This document shows positions 1,267-9,066 of a DNA stretch of 23,118 bases, piece by piece. A model generated the notes under the pieces. It did not search any database, was not told the origin of the DNA, and saw only the letters and a program-made list of their open reading frames with translations. The translations under genes were made by a program, and so were the position numbers. Location of the stretch: positions 1-23,118 of the IMG/VR virus record IMGVR_UViG_2565956626_000019. The stretch is one strand, 5' to 3'. The stretch comes from a virus. Its lineage: Duplodnaviria > Heunggongvirae > Uroviricota > Caudoviricetes. Position 1 is the stretch's first letter. Each line of letters starts with the position of its first letter.

Positions 1267-3444
1267 CTATCTAATCCTGAACATTACAATTGGAGCAGAG
1301 CCAGAAGATAAAGGGCCTGACCAATGGTATCTAATTCTGAAAGAAGACTCACTTGGAGTTCCGATAATTTCTATTGGACTTAAAGTTGCACCTTCTGCAG
1401 AACCAGCAGGTTGTCTAAACCCCAACACAGCAATCTGGTTTGGTGTTGGGGCATACAGAAAATTATGCTCAATATCAACCTCGTTAGATTCGCTACCTGT
1501 TGGGTTTGGCATATTCCACTCAATATAATCGTCAGTTGATTTCCCATTTATTGAGTTTCCAACTGTTGCCATAATCGTCCACGTACACGTCCTGTTAAGG
1601 GCTGCCATTCTATCACCTAAAAACCTATTATAACCATTTGCGCCTGAAGTGATTAATCTTATATTCTCTGATGCACATGTGCCAATGCTGTTAAATCCAG
1701 TGCAATCAGAAGAAAGCCCCTTCGCAGTTATATCTACGCTGTTCGCAAAACAAATTGTTGTTGAATTTACTGCATCGCGAATAAGAGCAGAACCCGAAAA
1801 CAAATTATCACACGAACCTCTTATATTATTACCACCGCCGGATAAGTAACATAAATTTCCTTTTATCCTCTTGGATGTAAAAGTAACATTGTTATTGTCA
1901 CCAGTAACAGAAAGAAGCGAGGCTTTAATAGGGGCATTGTCACTCTGCAACTGACCAATTTGGTTTATTGTAACTACATTGTTGTTGCCTGATATAGCTA
2001 TCTGATACCCATCATCATCAATTGAAGGTGAATATCTTTGTGCTTTTATATTGATGTTAAGTGTCCAGATTTTACCGTTATCCAGAAGCATGTCGCGGAG
2101 AGGAGAAATTGAATCGCCAGTGTAGTTATCTGGCATTCTTCCGCACGCCCTGGCTTCTGCGATGGCAACAACACCATGTGCCCCGTTGGTAAACCAGTAA
2201 CCACCTAAACTATTATCAACACACACGTGCCTCGCATTGAATCGGTTAACACCCAGCGTCTTAAATCCATAGCCATAATACACAGCATATACATGGATGT
2301 AATTTATATCGACATGTCCTGTATAAGGAGACTGATTATCAAGAACAATTCCATGACATGATTCTCCTGGATAAAGAAGGCTTTGTTGGCTTGTTGCTGT
2401 TAATCTTGCGCTGTAAGGAGGAAGTCCACACAGGCCAAAAACAATATAATCTAGGTTAATATCACCTGGCCCCCTGAACACAACCCCCTCTCTCCCTGAA
2501 ATTCTTCCCGTTATCCTCACTTCAGAGGCGTGTTCCTGATTATCATGAAATGATCCATACCCCTCTGAATAGAGAGCATGTTCTGCAACATTATTAATCT
2601 CAACGTCAATGTGGTACATGCTGCCGAATATTTTAATGGCAGTTCCATAGTCATTGTTAACAGTGTCGCAAGTTCTCCATGAGTTTGTATCTCTTTGCAA
2701 GTCAAGATAATTACCATCAATGGTCATATCTTTTATGCTAAATCCATATGGCGCATCAGACAGATTTTCCACAACGCCAAAGCCATGTGTTTTAAATACA
2801 TCTGTATTACTACCTTTTTTAACATACAGAAATGTTGCTCTCTTTCCAGAGCCTTTATGATGAACGCCTGTATAAAGAATGATAGGAGAATCTATTAAAT
2901 AAACACCTGGAGGGTAAAATATTTCCCCACCACCATTATTAAAAGCAGCTAATGCTGCGGCATTAATGGCATCAGAATCTGATGTCAATCCATCTGCTTT
3001 AGCTCCATAGTATTGAGGTGTTTTCCTGATTGCATCGTAAACCGTTGAAGCGCCGAAACCGATATATTTACTACCATCTGTACCGCCAATAAGTAATTTA
3101 AACTGATCCGGGTCGTACTTCAACACATTAGGAAAATTGAACTGCTGCGCCCCATATGCATCATAAACAGCCATAGAATGGCCTTGCACAGTTACGAACT
3201 TGGCAATCTGTCCGTTATATACCGGGTAACCAGCAGCGTTAATGATGATTGGTTGAGAAACAGGAACGTGAGAGCCGTCTTCGTTCTCCACATAAACCTG
3301 AATCTGGTTTTCTGGATTTACTGGGTCAGTGTCAATTTTACCGATATAAATTTTACCATTGGCAACTGCTTTAAAAGAACGCGCCATAGTGAAGAGTTGC
3401 GATGGCATGCTTACCACAACATTGGCATTTATTGAATCTGTCAT
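1267..3444 (-). CDS. Tailspike protein: P22-gp9-type N-terminal head-binding domain fused to a divergent beta-helix-like receptor-binding domain.
   Basis: 725 aa. N-terminus [44 protein letters not shown]...[13 protein letters not shown]...[10 protein letters not shown] closely matches my recollection of the P22 tailspike N-terminus. Remainder is Gly/Asn/Ser-rich repeat-like sequence. ATG at 3444 with GGAG 8 nt upstream; TAG stop at 1267-1269. Confidence 0.85.
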
Positions 3445-3576
3445 TTAATTTGCTCCAGATACAAGGAATCACCGCAGCATGGCTACGGTTGGAATTTGTT
3501 ACATACCTAAACGGTACGATTGTTGATTTGTACAGTGGGTTTTACGATGCCATTCCACCCATTTGGTGAGGCATTG

Positions 3577-3834
3577 ATGATGTACAGCAAATACGATGAG
3601 GCGCAGTTCCACTTGAGGCTTACACACGAGTTGCACGCTAAGATTAAGCAGCGTGCAAAAATGAATAACAGGTCTATCAATTCCGAAATTGTGGCTACGA
3701 TGGAAGAATCACTCTCCAAACCATCACCTGTAAGCGGGTATCGTGATGAAGAAGAGAGGCTGGCCTCATTAATCTCGGAACGAGTAAAAGAAGTTGCGGC
3801 TGATATCCTTAGAAAAGAAAAAACCCGCGATTAA
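3577..3834 (+). CDS. mnt: Mnt-like ribbon-helix-helix repressor (Arc/MetJ superfamily with C-terminal oligomerisation helix).
   Basis: Residues NNRSINSEIVATMEESLSKPSPVSGYRDEEERLASLI align with recalled P22 Mnt (NGRSMNSELLQIVQDALSKPSPVTGYRNDAERLA). ATG-ATG at 3577-3582 preceded by GGTGAGG 5 nt upstream. The track ORF from 3520 starts at a TTG and is probably an artefactual extension. Confidence 0.8.
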   Translation: MMYSKYDEAQFHLRLTHELHAKIKQRAKMNNRSINSEIVATMEESLSKPSPVSGYRDEEERLASLISERVKEVAADILRKEKTRD

Positions 3835-3850
3835 GCGGGTTTAGTTGGTT
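3811..3850. terminator. Bidirectional intrinsic terminator shared by convergent mnt (+) and the arc-bro-ant-orf73 operon (-).
   Basis: Stem AAACCCGC (3821-3828), loop GATTAA, stem GCGGGTTT (3835-3842). A-run at 3813-3823 gives UUUUUUCUUUU after the hairpin on the minus strand; T-rich TTTAGTTGGTT follows on the plus strand. Overlaps the mnt stop codon. Confidence 0.65.
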
Positions 3851-4070
3851 AGTTATCAAAAAGTCCGTACGTTTCTTCTTCTTCAGGTGTAAGGGGAAGA
3901 ATCTCTACTCTATCTATAGATACCTTTTCAATGTACCCATGAGGTCTACTTAAAATTAAAGCTCTCTCATGCCACAGAACTCCAAGAATGTGATACCTTC
4001 CAGCATCGCCTTTTACCCTGGCTCTTCCTTTGATTCTTGGAGGCATAATGCCATATTTTTTCTTTGCCAT
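3849..4070 (-). CDS. Hypothetical small basic protein with acidic C-terminal tail (73 aa), translationally coupled to the upstream Ant-like gene.
   Basis: ATG at 4070-4068 overlaps the upstream TAA in a TAATG arrangement. Sequence MAKKKYGIMPPRIKGRARVKGD...LTPEEEETYGLFDN. No family recognised. Confidence 0.5.
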   Translation of the reverse strand: MAKKKYGIMPPRIKGRARVKGDAGRYHILGVLWHERALILSRPHGYIEKVSIDRVEILPLTPEEEETYGLFDN

Positions 4071-4798
4071 TATGCAACATTACTCCCATGAATCAGGTGT
4101 TGTAGTGCTTTAACACCTTCCGCATTGTAGCGGAATGCTTCCACCTGTTTGCTGGAATGCGCAGATTTATCCAGGAAGAACTTCCCGTACTGCTCAGTTT
4201 TGAGGTTGTTTGCGTTAGCAATGCGACCAATCTTGTTGGCCGTTACTCCAAGCTGCTCTGCAACCTCCCCTGCTGAGTAGTAATGCTCTTCTATTGCCGG
4301 AAGAGGTATTGCATTAAAACCAACGAGCGGGTTGATTATACTTGCTGCCGCTGTCTGCTTTGCCTCAGGCGCAAGATTTGGCATCAGATCGAACAGATTG
4401 GTAACAGCTTCAACCGTCATTTTCAGTGTTCGCGCCTGGCGATACTCAACAAGTCCACTCGACGATTTACCGCTTTTAATGTGCGCTTCTTGCATACTTT
4501 CAAGTTGGTCTACAAGTGAGCGGCGAACAGCTTTAGATTCACGAGCAGCCACTCGAAGGGCTTGCTTAATTGACATAACAACTTTTTCAGAAGTTGTCTT
4601 GTTTGATTTTTGAACTACGAAAATTTCGTAGTGCTCACCTTCAAGTTCATCCTTAATGCGTGCAATAAAGTCGTTATTGCGAACTTCTTTTTCCCCGCAC
4701 TGTCTACGAGCATGATTGACCATCTCTAACAGGTACTGGCTATCAATGGTTTTATCCGTGACAACGGATCCGATGTTTGCTACATTCTTAAAAGTCAT
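4070..4798 (-). CDS. Antirepressor-like protein with C-terminal KilAC/ANT-type domain.
   Basis: 242 aa from ATG at 4798, with AAGGAA 6 nt upstream. C-terminal segment YYSAGEVAEQLGVTANKIGRIANANNLKTEQYGKFF resembles the antirepressor KilAC DNA-binding motif. The track ORF to 4885 begins at a TTG. Confidence 0.6.
   Translation of the reverse strand: MTFKNVANIGSVVTDKTIDSQYLLEMVNHARRQCGEKEVRNNDFIARIKDELEGEHYEIFVVQKSNKTTSEKVVMSIKQALRVAARESKAVRRSLVDQLESMQEAHIKSGKSSSGLVEYRQARTLKMTVEAVTNLFDLMPNLAPEAKQTAAASIINPLVGFNAIPLPAIEEHYYSAGEVAEQLGVTANKIGRIANANNLKTEQYGKFFLDKSAHSSKQVEAFRYNAEGVKALQHLIHGSNVA
4758..4786 (+). promoter_or_regulatory. Candidate sigma70 promoter on the plus strand, antisense to the ant-like gene start (P_sar-like).
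   Basis: -35 GTGACA at 4758-4763, 17-nt spacer, -10 TACATT at 4781-4786. Predicted start about 4793, reading across the ant-like start codon (4796-4798) and its Shine-Dalgarno (4805-4810). Confidence 0.4.
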
Positions 4799-4885: not shown

Positions 4886-5512
4886 TCAATGAATCCATTC
4901 CTCGCCGCGAAGTTTTGCCAGCATTGGCTGAGCGTTCTTTACGACAAAATTGTTGGGATCAAGATTCTTCATTTCACGAAGAAGCGATTTCTTGGTTTCT
5001 TCTGACATGTAGCGAGTCTCATATGCAATATCGTAAATCCTTCCTGAAAGCTCAGAACCAATTTGCTTCATTCCTGGGTAGATGTGTTTGCACATTTGTT
5101 GACTCTTCTCCATCCACAATTGTAAGTAGCAGAGATTAACCAGTTCTTCGTCAGTAAACTGTTTTGCAATCGGTGAGCATTCTGCCTGCCGATCCAAAAT
5201 ATCCAGCACCCAGCGGCGGAACTCTTTGGCTACCGGAGTGCGAGCAAACATCGCGATTAGGTGGGCACCGCGTAGTGAGAAAACTCGCACTTTTTTGCGA
5301 TAATTTCCTGAGGTACTCACTTCGAGTACCTGAGTCATTCCGGCGCTAAACTCATCGCTATACTTGTTATAAATCATTGTTACTGCACGGCTATTTGCAT
5401 ATTTAAGTGCAGATGCAATATTAGATGATGTAAACCAAACACCATGCATATCACGGGTGGGCACCAACTCAACTCCGTGGAAGTTGTAATCTGATTTTGC
5501 TACAATATTCAT
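4886..5512 (-). CDS. BRO-N/AntA-like antirepressor-family protein.
   Basis: 208 aa from ATG at 5512, with AAGGAAA 7 nt upstream. N-terminal region ...GVELVPTRDMHGVWFTSSNIASALKYANSRAV... and ...LIAMFARTPVAKEFRRWVLDIL match the BRO-N/KilA-N pattern. Alternative ATGs at 5542 and 5617 lack good SD. Confidence 0.65.
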   Translation of the reverse strand: MNIVAKSDYNFHGVELVPTRDMHGVWFTSSNIASALKYANSRAVTMIYNKYSDEFSAGMTQVLEVSTSGNYRKKVRVFSLRGAHLIAMFARTPVAKEFRRWVLDILDRQAECSPIAKQFTDEELVNLCYLQLWMEKSQQMCKHIYPGMKQIGSELSGRIYDIAYETRYMSEETKKSLLREMKNLDPNNFVVKNAQPMLAKLRGEEWIH

Positions 5513-5585
5513 GTTAGTTTCCTTGCATACGGTTACTGACATAGAGGCCCGGTTTGTGTTCGCGCACTGCCGGGCTTCACTATTT

Positions 5586-5759
5586 TTATTGGATGACAAC
5601 ATCGCCCTTTGCCTCAAGTTTCATCAATAACTCCATTCGATAAGCTATCTCTGCCTGAATTGACCTATGGCATCTTTTTGCTGATTCGCGGATATGTGAA
5701 TCAACCTTTTCTGTAAAACGAACCTGACGCGGCTTGATGGAAGATATCTTTTCAGTCAT
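5586..5759 (-). CDS. arc: Arc-like ribbon-helix-helix repressor, 57 aa (not in the supplied ORF track because it is under 60 aa).
   Basis: My translation: MTEKISSIKPRQVRFTEKVDSHIRESAKRCHRSIQAEIAYRMELLMKLEAKGDVVIQ. Aligns with recalled P22 Arc (..FNLRWPREVLDLVRKVAEENGRSVNSEIYQRVMESFKKEG). AGGAG 6 nt upstream of ATG (5759-5757); TAA at 5588-5586; first gene of the minus-strand operon. Confidence 0.6.
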   Translation of the reverse strand: MTEKISSIKPRQVRFTEKVDSHIRESAKRCHRSIQAEIAYRMELLMKLEAKGDVVIQ

Positions 5760-5858
5760 TATGCACTCCTGTTTTTGAAAAACTCATAATCTCACTTTTT
5801 GTAGTTTGATTATTCACTCACACTCAGTATGAGTCAATGAATTTTTTATGGTGAACTA
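5760..5858. promoter_or_regulatory. Divergent, overlapping promoter/operator region between the arc operon (-) and the CI-like operon (+).
   Basis: Minus-strand promoter: -35 TTGACT (5837-5832), 17-nt spacer, -10 AATAAT (5814-5809). Plus-strand candidate: -35 TTGATT (5806-5811), -10 TATGAG (5828-5833). Palindrome ACTCAgtaTGAGT (5822-5834) and tandem CACTCA repeats (5815-5826) overlap both promoters. Confidence 0.45.
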
Positions 5859-6500
5859 ATGAATTTTGACGATCAATTCCCATCAAGAGTATCTCTGGCA
5901 AGACAGTCCAGGGGTATGACGCAGGCGCAGTTGTCAAAATTAGCTGGTGTTGTTCAACGTCAAATAGCTGCATACGAGGGTGGTGAGGCTAAACCACGGC
6001 TTCGTGTATTGCAGGCATTAGCCAACGCATTAGGCACTACGGCTGAGTGGTTAGCTCTGGGTGAAGGTCAGGGGCCTGGAACAAAAAACGTCATGCCTGA
6101 CGTTCTGGTAAAGCAAATACCAATCCTCAAACTAGATGAAGTTATGCATTACCTAAACACAGGTGAACATTCATCGTCTAGATTTCATCCGGCAATATAC
6201 AATGTTGGTGACTCTGCATTTGCATTGACTATTGAAGGTGAAGCTATGACTACAAGTTCAGGTATTAGCTTTCCCAGAGGATCAGTTGTCACGTTCAGCC
6301 CTCTAGTAAAAGCTAAAAGCAAAGATTATGTAATAGCATCATTGGATAAAGAGCAAATATTGAGCTTCAAGCAGGTTTACATTGGTGAAATAGAGACAAA
6401 CTTAGTATCCCTAAACCCAATGTATCCTAATATTCTTGTTAGAAATGAAGATGTTAGTATTTTGGCAACCGCAGTTTACCTTGAAATCCCGTTGCTTTGA
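5859..6500 (+). CDS. Lambda CI-like repressor (XRE HTH plus S24/LexA-like C-terminal domain) that appears non-cleavable.
   Basis: 213 aa. HTH GMTQAQLSKLAGVVQRQIAAYEGG. C-domain DSAFALTIEGEAM...DYVIASL...SFKQV...LNPMYPNIL aligns with lambda CI DSAFWLEVEGNSM...DFCIARL...TFKKL...LNPQYPMIP. Ser149 equivalent is Ala; Lys192 equivalent retained; Ala-Gly scissile site position reads Asp-Glu. Confidence 0.8.
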   Translation: MNFDDQFPSRVSLARQSRGMTQAQLSKLAGVVQRQIAAYEGGEAKPRLRVLQALANALGTTAEWLALGEGQGPGTKNVMPDVLVKQIPILKLDEVMHYLNTGEHSSSRFHPAIYNVGDSAFALTIEGEAMTTSSGISFPRGSVVTFSPLVKAKSKDYVIASLDKEQILSFKQVYIGEIETNLVSLNPMYPNILVRNEDVSILATAVYLEIPLL

Positions 6501-6564
6501 TATCCTTTAGGAAGCGACACATTATCATCCGGTGTTCTGCTCAAAACTAAGGAGTGGCTACTCA

Positions 6565-7203
6565 ATGAAAAAAATAGATATATATAGCGATACATCAGCC
6601 TATGTCATAGGCTCATTGGGTTTTTTAATTTTTTTTGTTTGGCAGTACCAGTCACTATCTCCAGGATGGAGATTTTTGGGGATGTCTTTGATATCACTTG
6701 GTGCAGGAATAGCAACGCAGGTGTTGATGTATCTCTTTAATGGATGGATCTCAAAAAGAGTTGAGAAAAAAAGAGCTACTTCAATATGTAGAAGCCTAGC
6801 TATTCCAGAAGACTCTACAGATCAGGATGATATTGCAAAATGTTGGCGGTATATGATTGCAAGATACTCAAATGAGTTACTGGCAAACAGACTGTCCGAC
6901 TTAATCGGGATCGTAGTTACCTCTGTTGGAACAATCATCAGTATAGGGATATCAATTTGGTATGTCGGGATGATTGTCTATTTTGTTTGGAATAGAGACT
7001 TCAATGAACCTTCCCTTCTTTTTATACCTTTATTTTTCAGGGTATTAGCATTCATATGTGAGTTATTGCTCTCTTTTTTCTGCAATGTTTTGTTCAACAG
7101 ATACCCAGGTGAAGCAAGAAAGTTTAATAAAAACTATGATGAGTTAAGGAGAACAGATCCTTTTCTATCAAGCAAAGAGTTCCGCGATTCCATTCGCAAT
7201 TAA
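6565..7203 (+). CDS. Multi-pass inner-membrane protein (4-5 predicted TM helices), co-operonic with the CI-like gene; function unknown (exclusion/immunity candidate).
   Basis: 212 aa from ATG at 6565, with AAGGAG 10 nt upstream. Hydrophobic segments AYVIGSLGFLIFFVWQY, FLGMSLISLGAGIATQVLMYLF, LIGIVVTSVGTIISIGISIWYVGMIVYFVW, LLFIPLFFRVLAFICELLLSFFCNVLF. Visibly AT-rich. Track ORF start at 6532 is an extension. Confidence 0.6.
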   Translation: MKKIDIYSDTSAYVIGSLGFLIFFVWQYQSLSPGWRFLGMSLISLGAGIATQVLMYLFNGWISKRVEKKRATSICRSLAIPEDSTDQDDIAKCWRYMIARYSNELLANRLSDLIGIVVTSVGTIISIGISIWYVGMIVYFVWNRDFNEPSLLFIPLFFRVLAFICELLLSFFCNVLFNRYPGEARKFNKNYDELRRTDPFLSSKEFRDSIRN

Positions 7204-7224: not shown

Positions 7225-9066
7225 TTAGCGATCAGTTGCATCATTGGCAAGTATTGGTCTGATGGCATTTGCGGCGTTATTCAGCGCTCTTTCATAGGCT
7301 GGCGTTCCAGCTTTAGTGTTTGCCAGACGTAAGAGCGCATTCCTTGCTGCTTTGGACTCATACAAGCGCATCATTGCACCGAAACCAGCCTCAAGCCCCA
7401 TTGATACGCCAAGAGTCGCAGTTGCGCCAATCGTCCTTATCCTGTTGGCTTGCGATTGCCCCGTCTGAGTTACTACATTTGCGGTGTCTGACCTTGCTGT
7501 TTGCTGTAGAACTTCATTAAGAGCATCAAGTTCTTTCATGTGCTTTCCAGAAAAAATAGTGTTGTAAATTTCACCTCCTGACTGAGATTTCAGCTTATTA
7601 ACTTCAGTGATGAACTTGGCTGGAGAGTCGCCGGCCTTTTCCGCTATTTTGCTGACGTAAGCTGCACGCATAGCATCTTTCCCTTTATCATCCAGTGCGC
7701 TCCAGATTCGTTTCACGTCAGATGGTTTTCTGCTTAATACAACGGTATTTATAAGTTCAGGACTGGCTTCACTGCTTGCCTTGTTGAGCTTGTTGGCAAT
7801 GTTTTTATTAAGCACCTTATTATAAACGTTTGCATAATCGGAATTTGCTTTAAGGTATTTTGCTGCGTCTGATGCACCGAGGTTTTTAGCAACTGCGTTA
7901 CGAAGGTCTTTTGACATTGCATTCTCTACCATATTGGTAGCTGCTTTTGCCTGGTTGGGGAAGACCATAGCATCTCCCTGAACATTAGATCTAAATGCTG
8001 TTCTGTGCTGACGCAAGAGATCAAACGTAACATCCAAATCAGTTGCAGGGTTTGCTAATTCTTCACGTAGGTTACGCAAGGATGTAAGCAGGCTTTGATT
8101 GGCAGACGTCCCAAGCCGTTCCTGTCTTGCGATCGCTGTATTCAGAGCATTCATGGTATTTGTGGTATCAACTGCGGCATTACCCATTTTATTGGTGACG
8201 TCATTGATAACAGCGCCAGCGGCATCCTTCCGCCCCCTTAACGTGGTGGTAAGAGATTTCACCACATCATCAGGGTTGTACTCACCAAAACGGTCAAAAT
8301 AATTGCTTACCAGTTTACTACGCGTTGCATATTGCTCCGCTCTCTTTGAGCCTGTCCCGAGCAAAGCCCCCTCGGCATCCTGAGTAAGGCCACGAGTGAA
8401 AGCATTTTTCGGCGGGATAACATCAGATGTCATTGGTGTCACGCCCATCGATTCTGATGTGGCAATTTTCTTCGCCACTTCTGGCGCAATATCACCTTTT
8501 ATAGCCGTTATTCCACGCCCTATTCCCTTTGCTGCTGCGGAAAGAACACCCTGAGCGGCAAGGTTAACTCCGGCATTTTTGGCTGCATTTTGTGCGAAAT
8601 CGCCTTTCTGATTTGCGGCCTCTGCCAGTGATCCAATAGCCATGCTTCCTGCCATTCCAACTCCTGGAACTAAATACCCGCCAATTGTTTCTCCAGCTTG
8701 CGCATAAGGGTCTGTTGGTCGATCTACTGGACGATAAACATCATCCAAAACCTTGGGGCCACCAAGACCCTGGCTGATTGCATTAATCAGACTTGCGCCA
8801 CCCTGCAATACGTCAAATGGTATGTTTACCAGACCACGGCCAGCCTGTTCTGCAATTTGCCCTGCACTTTGACCACCAGTGAGCCAATCGCCAGCTTGTT
8901 GCATCAATGATGGTTCTTCACGTGCTGGTTCATTATTGGCCTGATTAACTGTTTGTTGCTGAACAGCCTGACCAGCAAAATACTCATCAATGGCGGTGCC
9001 AATATCTTCCGTGCTCGTACCATCAGGAAAGGTAAATGTCTTACCGTTTGCAGTTACTTTCATCAT
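7225..9066 (-). CDS. Ejection (pilot/E) protein, P22 gp16-like.
   Basis: 613 aa; size and position match P22 gp16 (the last gene before the accessory region). ATG pair at 9066/9063 overlaps the upstream stop. Confidence 0.65.

Follow-up and report, generated by a model that had tools for sequence, protein, structure and literature searches.

The 57-codon open reading frame (ORF) at positions 5586..5759 (minus strand, stop codon included) of the window, by which we mean the whole 23,118-nucleotide stretch of the virus record IMGVR_UViG_2565956626_000019, is probably a genuine, translated ribbon-helix-helix (RHH) gene of a divergent Arc subfamily, which leads the ant operon of a P22-like immunity I (immI) region and most likely encodes an Arc-like repressor. 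The deduced protein is MTEKISSIKPRQVRFTEKVDSHIRESAKRCHRSIQAEIAYRMELLMKLEAKGDVVIQ. An earlier note on this DNA had introduced the gene as unannotated, but it already exists as JEP4_15 in the phage JEP4 record, as RefSeq entry WP_021518013.1 and as PHROG 10182, in each case without a function. WP_021518013.1 is called a hypothetical protein in all 28 carriers among 5,426 complete E. coli genomes, and among the homologues returned a single cluster, P0024 (with a Yersinia enterocolitica record cited in its source names), is named Arc family DNA-binding protein. The copy in E. coli HS (3608-3781 of the locus) carries the tag ECHS_RS25735, out of series with RS01605 and RS01610. The gene was indeed absent from the ORF track supplied with the window, as the same note had remarked, solely because the ORF is shorter than the 60-residue default of the lister.

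Coding status of the 57-codon ORF

The minus-strand ORF and its AGGAG Shine-Dalgarno sequence, both read by the earlier note from the letters alone, were confirmed. The Shine-Dalgarno sequence lies at 5766..5770 (minus strand), six nucleotides before the ATG (5757-5759), and the frame is under purifying selection. We compared homologues from Klebsiella, Yersinia, Pantoea, Hafnia, Serratia, and Atlantibacter loci. In the annotated frame, synonymous sites are saturated (pS 0.705) and pN is 0.137, giving a ratio of 0.195, with variable columns distributed 22/16/50 over the three codon positions. The same ratio exceeds 1 in four of the other five frames, the fifth (antisense) giving 0.37. The 73-nt non-coding spacer directly downstream of the gene, used as a negative control, showed 18/20/22 variable columns and a pN/pS of 0.75, i.e., no periodicity. 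Across nine diverged loci the ATG is conserved, and the Shine-Dalgarno sequence is kept in all nine as (A/G)AGAGG(A/T)G or AGGAG. Nearly every one of the 30 database clusters has a protein of 57 residues, the Pantoea protein having 58, and 26 positions are invariant. Judged by these substitution patterns, the ORF is a real gene, far beyond chance.

Relationship to the Arc family

Against Pfam Arc (PF03869) the protein scored 16.0 bits (E 0.011), below the gathering threshold of 20.4. Its best single Pfam match, ParD_like (PF11903; 19.8 bits, E 8e-4), was also below the respective threshold of 23. An NCBIfam scan of the protein matched no model, and BLASTP produced no alignment between it and the canonical Arc of a sister prophage (E. 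coli AH19B041). It matches PHROG 10182, a family of 57-residue proteins, at 2e-37. A profile search of the family against 1.84 billion representative proteins returned nine proteins only. In this collection, the family profile found P0032 (2e-7), P0034 (1e-4), and P0036 (8e-4), which score 29.1, 30.9, and 87.5 bits on Pfam Arc, all passing its gathering score. The family profile enlarged by these three sequences retrieved AmrZ (8e-6), single-chain Arc (2.7e-4), and Arc (0.03) from the PDB. Profile-profile comparison by hhalign with a small Arc/Mnt alignment gave a probability of 94.2% (E 1e-7) and placed P10-Q57 on Arc Q9-A53, so that Q12, R14, and F15 fall on Arc N11, R13, and W14, and the loop H-R-S on G-R-S. 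The P22 Arc sequence used in the comparison is 100% identical to record X01916. When a shallow profile of the family was compared by hhalign with P22 Arc as a lone sequence, the probability was an uninformative 12%. The HMM comparison with Arc, which the earlier note had recommended, was divided in its outcome: the direct Pfam score is sub-threshold, whereas profile and transitive searches reach the Arc family.

The N-terminal strand R11-Q12-V13-R14-F15 alternates polar and hydrophobic residues and is invariant in the close family. The turn entering helix B reads H-R-S, in which the Ser of the G-x-S/T/N pattern is present and His takes the place of Gly, as in the solved RHH protein AmrZ. More distant homologues and relatives carry Gly-Pro (Pantoea) or Gly-Arg-Thr in this loop. 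Cys30 and His31, invariant in the close family, are not typical of Arc. Transitive homology, the matches to solved structures, the profile-profile comparison, and the arc slot described below all support the original proposal of an Arc-like RHH protein, a divergent Arc-family member of the RHH (MetJ/Arc) superfamily.

Predicted structure

We used AlphaFold predictions of the monomer, in which the intersubunit β-ribbon cannot appear. A first model, from 30 sequences more than 80% identical to one another, consisted of one helix spanning residues 17-51 (pLDDT 88.7), for which Foldseek found no RHH match. A second model, from 15 diverse rows, has an extended N-terminus, a helix of residues 17-29, a four-residue loop, and a helix of residues 34-51 (pLDDT 86.7); six added sequences of 33–43% identity brought the helix-loop-helix back. 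This second model matches RHH structures, the antitoxins TacA, MazE9, VapB12, and HicB being among the fold matches. It contains the topology of strand, helix A, short loop, and helix B, and the protein ends six residues past helix B. We regard the first model as superseded because its input consisted of near-identical sequences, and a continuous helix from 17 to 51 as unlikely because natural loop variants carry Gly-Pro or Gly-Arg-Thr. Structure prediction, named in the earlier note as a possible refutation of the fold, came near to being one with the first model, whereas the model from the diverse alignment is RHH-like. For this small obligate-dimer fold, a shallow alignment led AlphaFold to a confident yet misleading single helix.

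With P22 Arc (reference structures PDB 1ARQ and 1PAR) the protein shares the size class (57 versus 53 residues) and the predicted topology at approximately 21% identity. Unlike Arc, it has His instead of Gly in the loop, the invariant Cys30, a longer second helix, and a conserved G-D-V-V-I-Q tail. The Arc-family RHH regulator AmrZ from Pseudomonas aeruginosa (PDB 3QOQ) has the loop H-R-S in common with the 57-residue protein. Encoded on the chromosome, AmrZ regulates alginate and motility genes, bears an oligomerisation domain at its C-terminus, and is not linked to the control of an antirepressor.

Gene order and comparison with P22 immI

The region matches Escherichia phage JEP4 (Lederbergvirus), the prophage of E. 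coli HS, and other P22-like E. coli prophages. By its sequence and gene order, the window is a P22-like prophage in which the 57-residue gene occupies the arc slot of the immI (“ant moron”) region. According to the JEP4 and RefSeq annotations, the locus is situated, as immI is, between homologues of gene 16 (DNA transfer protein, 7225-9066, minus strand) and gene 9 (tailspike, 1267-3444, minus strand). The small RHH gene opens the ant operon, and behind it come a sar antisense RNA and ant itself, which bears out the place at the head of the antirepressor operon that the earlier note had given it. P22 arc likewise stands first in its ant operon, upstream of sar and ant and divergent from the gene for the maintenance repressor.

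The antirepressor Ant (4886..5512, minus strand; 208 residues from the ATG at 5512) combines Bro-N (Pfam, 2e-10) with P22_AR_C (3e-14) and matches PHROG 245 at 3e-53. Downstream of it are a second, KilA-like antirepressor-like gene (4070..4798, minus strand; PHROG 1726, 2e-100; start taken from RefSeq relatives), a 73-residue ORF (3849-4070, minus strand), and a gene of the Mnt/Arc family (3520-3834, plus strand; Pfam Arc, 8e-15), annotated as “regulatory protein mnt” in JEP4. This Mnt-like gene adjoins the tailspike gene at the distal end of the moron and is convergent with the ant operon.

The locus resembles P22 immI (mnt-arc-sar-ant) in location, gene order, the geometry of the sar promoter, and the two-hairpin structure of sar. 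It differs in the head of Ant, which is Bro-N here and P22_AR_N in P22, and in carrying two additional genes further downstream, one of them antirepressor-like (the second such gene) and the other Mnt-like. A further difference concerns the divergent partner, which in P22 is the RHH protein Mnt. Here, the mnt position is occupied by a lambda CI-like repressor with HTH_3 and Peptidase_S24 domains (5859..6500, plus strand; Pfam 9e-13 and 1e-12, respectively), which aligns to lambda CI, and the Mnt-like gene is 2 kb away. A SieA-like superinfection exclusion gene (6532-7203, plus strand; PHROG 7745, 8e-21) sits between this repressor gene and the DNA transfer gene, and is absent from that place in phage JEP4.

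Where lambda CI reads GNSM, the repressor reads GEAM (IEGEAMT, approximately residues 124-130), with Ala for the nucleophile Ser149, whereas G[DE]SM is found in each of the seven relatives from other genera. The repressor retains the catalytic Lys (FKQ), and the linker is devoid of an evident Ala-Gly cleavage site. The E. coli repressor allele is probably not RecA-cleavable.

The sar antisense RNA and the start of ant

A Rfam scan of the window at gathering scores detected no family, and at a loose threshold only a weak symR-like match (E 0.14) was obtained, lying over the sar homologue. For comparison, the Rfam sar model (RF00262) scores 97.8 bits in the P22 record. Used as a DNA query against the phage collection, the arc-ant spacer did not retrieve P22, and the homology to sar became visible only by direct comparison with the P22 immI record. 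The diverged sar homologue (5513..5585, plus strand) comprises two hairpins and is complementary to the ribosome binding site of ant. Between the stop codon of the 57-residue gene and the ATG of ant, the stem of a hairpin shows compensating substitutions among loci. When the antisense strands of eight loci were aligned with P22 sar, the two hairpins, with 20 pairs, were 92.7% paired, compared with approximately 40% when the pairing partners were slid. Nine pairs have changes on both sides, and none of 500 shuffles reached the observed score. About 31 cells of the alignment are G-U pairs, which on the sense strand would be A-C mismatches, so we assign the structure to the antisense RNA. A candidate sar promoter with an extended -10 element, TGcTACAAT (5498..5506, plus strand), can be read from the sequence, its spacing to the predicted start at about 5513 being equal to that of TGcTATACT in P22. 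With a diverged sar present, there is more reason to regard the whole locus as a circuit of the P22 type. The Rfam sar model itself appears too narrow.

The frame of ant is open for 33–36 codons upstream in all nine non-P22 loci (5513-5617 of the window, minus strand) and includes an in-frame ATG at 5600-5602, within the end of the 57-residue gene; gene callers often choose this long form of ant. We rejected this upstream start, as the stretch has no codon periodicity and a pN/pS of 0.75. The start of ant was set at 5512 because the upstream extension lacks a coding signature; by the same measure, the extension is probably untranslated.

Promoter and candidate operators

The predicted promoter of the RHH-ant operon, the analogue of Pant, is TTGACT-17-AATAAT (5809..5837, minus strand), with 10 of 12 matches to the sigma70 consensus. 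It is the sole sigma70-like site found in 5300-6000, although one such site per 700 bp is not above the number in shuffled sequence (mean 2.0). The sigma70-like promoter claimed upstream of the gene is predicted from the site itself and its conservation, and not from the count, which is no better than that of shuffles. In nine diverged loci, TTGAC of the -35 element is invariant and the position of the -10 element is kept, and it is this conservation, together with that of the Shine-Dalgarno sequence and the ATG, that makes the promoter call count.

Three elements in this region are candidate operators. The dyad ACTCATACTGAGT (5822..5834), read from the sequence, lies in the spacer between the -35 and -10 elements, and comparable dyads occupy the same place in other loci. 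The inverted repeat ATAATCAAACT / AGTGAGATTAT (5786..5813), whose 11-nt arms are 82% complementary and 6 nt apart, covers the -10 element and the predicted start site. The 11-mer TATGAGTTTTT in the 5′ leader (5778..5788, minus strand) was picked out by conservation: it is exact in six of eight diverged loci and has one or two changes elsewhere, the remaining control region being about half conserved. In other loci, each control region has two dyads of the form ATGA-N4/5-TCAT, related to TATGAGTTTTT. The intergenic comparison of 11 loci thus yielded dyads and a conserved 11-mer, none attributable to either protein. Covariation of the DNA was uninformative for the operators because both the RHH strand and the recognition helix of the repressor are invariant across close loci. 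In sequence, the operator region has nothing in common with the arc operator of P22.

Conservation and exchange of the module

The arrangement of an S24 repressor gene divergent from an RHH gene that is followed by one or more antirepressor genes is shared by loci of Klebsiella, Yersinia, Pantoea, Hafnia, Serratia, and Atlantibacter, and recurs in at least seven other genera and three tail types, the surroundings containing podovirus, siphovirus, or myovirus tail genes. At each of the loci examined, approximately 100 bp separate the RHH gene from a divergently transcribed HTH/S24 repressor gene, and one or two antirepressors (Bro-N/P22_AR_C, P22_AR_N, KilA-N, ORF6N, or pRha) follow downstream. 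The same module surrounds homologues only 40–43% identical.

In the sister prophage of E. coli AH19B041, this slot is filled by a Pfam-positive Arc of 57 residues (45.2 bits) beside a truncated pseudogene of the Mnt type, the two standing in place of the RHH gene and the S24 repressor gene. Alignment of this locus (2684-3127) with the window (5586-5900) places the switch point at the stop codon that ends the small gene; beyond it, the two DNAs are near-identical, with one mismatch in the spacer. This swap identifies the 57-residue gene as the positional counterpart of arc and indicates that the block of repressor, RHH gene, and operator behaves as an exchangeable cassette.

Proposed regulatory role

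DNA binding, the operator, and the direction of regulation of the 57-residue protein we infer by analogy with P22 Arc. In the lysogen, the lambda CI-like HTH/S24 protein would act as the standing repressor in place of Mnt. Upon infection or derepression, the operon promoter would fire and the RHH protein would accumulate and dimerise, and its β-ribbon (R11-Q12-V13-R14-F15) would enter the major groove of an operator presumably located within the 99-bp region between the 57-residue gene and the divergent repressor gene. The bound protein would shut off the ant promoter by feedback, and possibly the divergent repressor promoter as well. The diverged sar, covering the ribosome binding site of ant, would in addition damp ant translation. 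As an outcome, Ant would be made only in a brief burst.

Several other roles can be envisaged. That the ORF arose by chance, or is a mere leader of the ant transcript giving no protein, is scarcely credible: the ORF is short and, according to the out-of-series tag and the published account (PMC2629481), was left out when E. coli HS was first annotated, but the selection on it is frame-specific with saturated synonymous sites, and its length, start, and Shine-Dalgarno sequence are conserved across seven genera. An RHH antitoxin of the ParD-like kind, belonging to a toxin-antitoxin pair, is very improbable as well. Such a role would agree with the sub-threshold ParD_like match, the best in Pfam for a single model, and with TacA, MazE9, VapB12, and HicB among the fold matches; the RHH fold does not discriminate, because these antitoxins share it. 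None of 12 loci has an adjacent toxin gene, antirepressors of the Bro-N, P22_AR_N, KilA-N, or ORF6N type always being found downstream, and a length of 57 residues leaves no C-terminal extension for binding a toxin.

Somewhat less remote, yet still improbable, is a small helical protein that does not bind DNA and acts by protein contact, for instance on Ant or on the S24 repressor. The long, high-confidence helix of the first AlphaFold model and the invariant Cys30/His31, atypical of Arc, would suit such a protein, but that model came from closely similar sequences and gave way to an RHH-like helix-loop-helix with a diverse alignment, the Gly-Pro and Gly-Arg-Thr loop variants speak against a continuous helix, and sequence profiles tie the protein to DNA-binding RHH proteins. 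The alternative that deserves most weight, although we consider it unlikely, is a Cro-like half of a bistable switch, whose main target would be the promoter of the S24 repressor and which would flip the locus to “ant on”. A first gene divergent from a lambda CI-like repressor gene across about 100 bp is the classic cI/cro layout, and the pairing and its spacing are conserved in every locus examined. However, the sigma70 scan of 5300-6000 found no promoter for the repressor on the plus strand, and a true Arc fills the same slot in the sister prophage. Moreover, one protein may play both roles, as P22 Arc does in repressing Pant as well as Pmnt. An Arc-like repressor of the ant operon remains the reading that we favour.

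Implications for immI regions and the Arc family

An analysis of the HS-1 prophage in 2008 reported that it apparently lacks arc and that ant is hence controlled otherwise than in P22 (PMC2629481). This statement rests on an annotation without the 57-residue gene. By our comparisons, ant morons of the HS-1 type possess both an Arc-like gene and an RNA resembling sar, and depart from P22 in the standing repressor, the Mnt layer having been replaced. Our literature search found no study of the module of S24 repressor, RHH protein, and antirepressor beyond that analysis. The 57-residue protein is a divergent new member of the known Arc family, and the prophage control circuit to which it belongs is likewise of a known kind; a family without a function in RefSeq (E. 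coli), the JEP4 record, and PHROG 10182 now gains a likely one. Both Pfam Arc and Rfam sar overlook diverged members that comparative analysis recovers.

It is possible, although we propose it only tentatively, that these loci form a distinct and widespread class of immI, with an S24 repressor instead of Mnt, a co-inherited Arc subfamily, and a retained sar, which together would constitute an SOS-coupled mobile cassette, locked in E. coli by the exchange of Ser for Ala. If so, release of the antirepressor would be coupled to RecA-stimulated self-cleavage of the S24 repressor, and induction would depend on SOS without the host LexA and without cleavage of the main repressor. The cassette would travel between Enterobacterales prophages of the podo-, sipho-, and myovirus types, and the Ser-to-Ala exchange in the E. 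coli allele would have made a non-inducible, Mnt-like lock. As a natural variant of P22 immI that is readily open to experiment, the module is suited to studying what limits antirepressor bursts, and it lets one ask whether a phage-encoded S24 repressor makes such bursts SOS-responsive.
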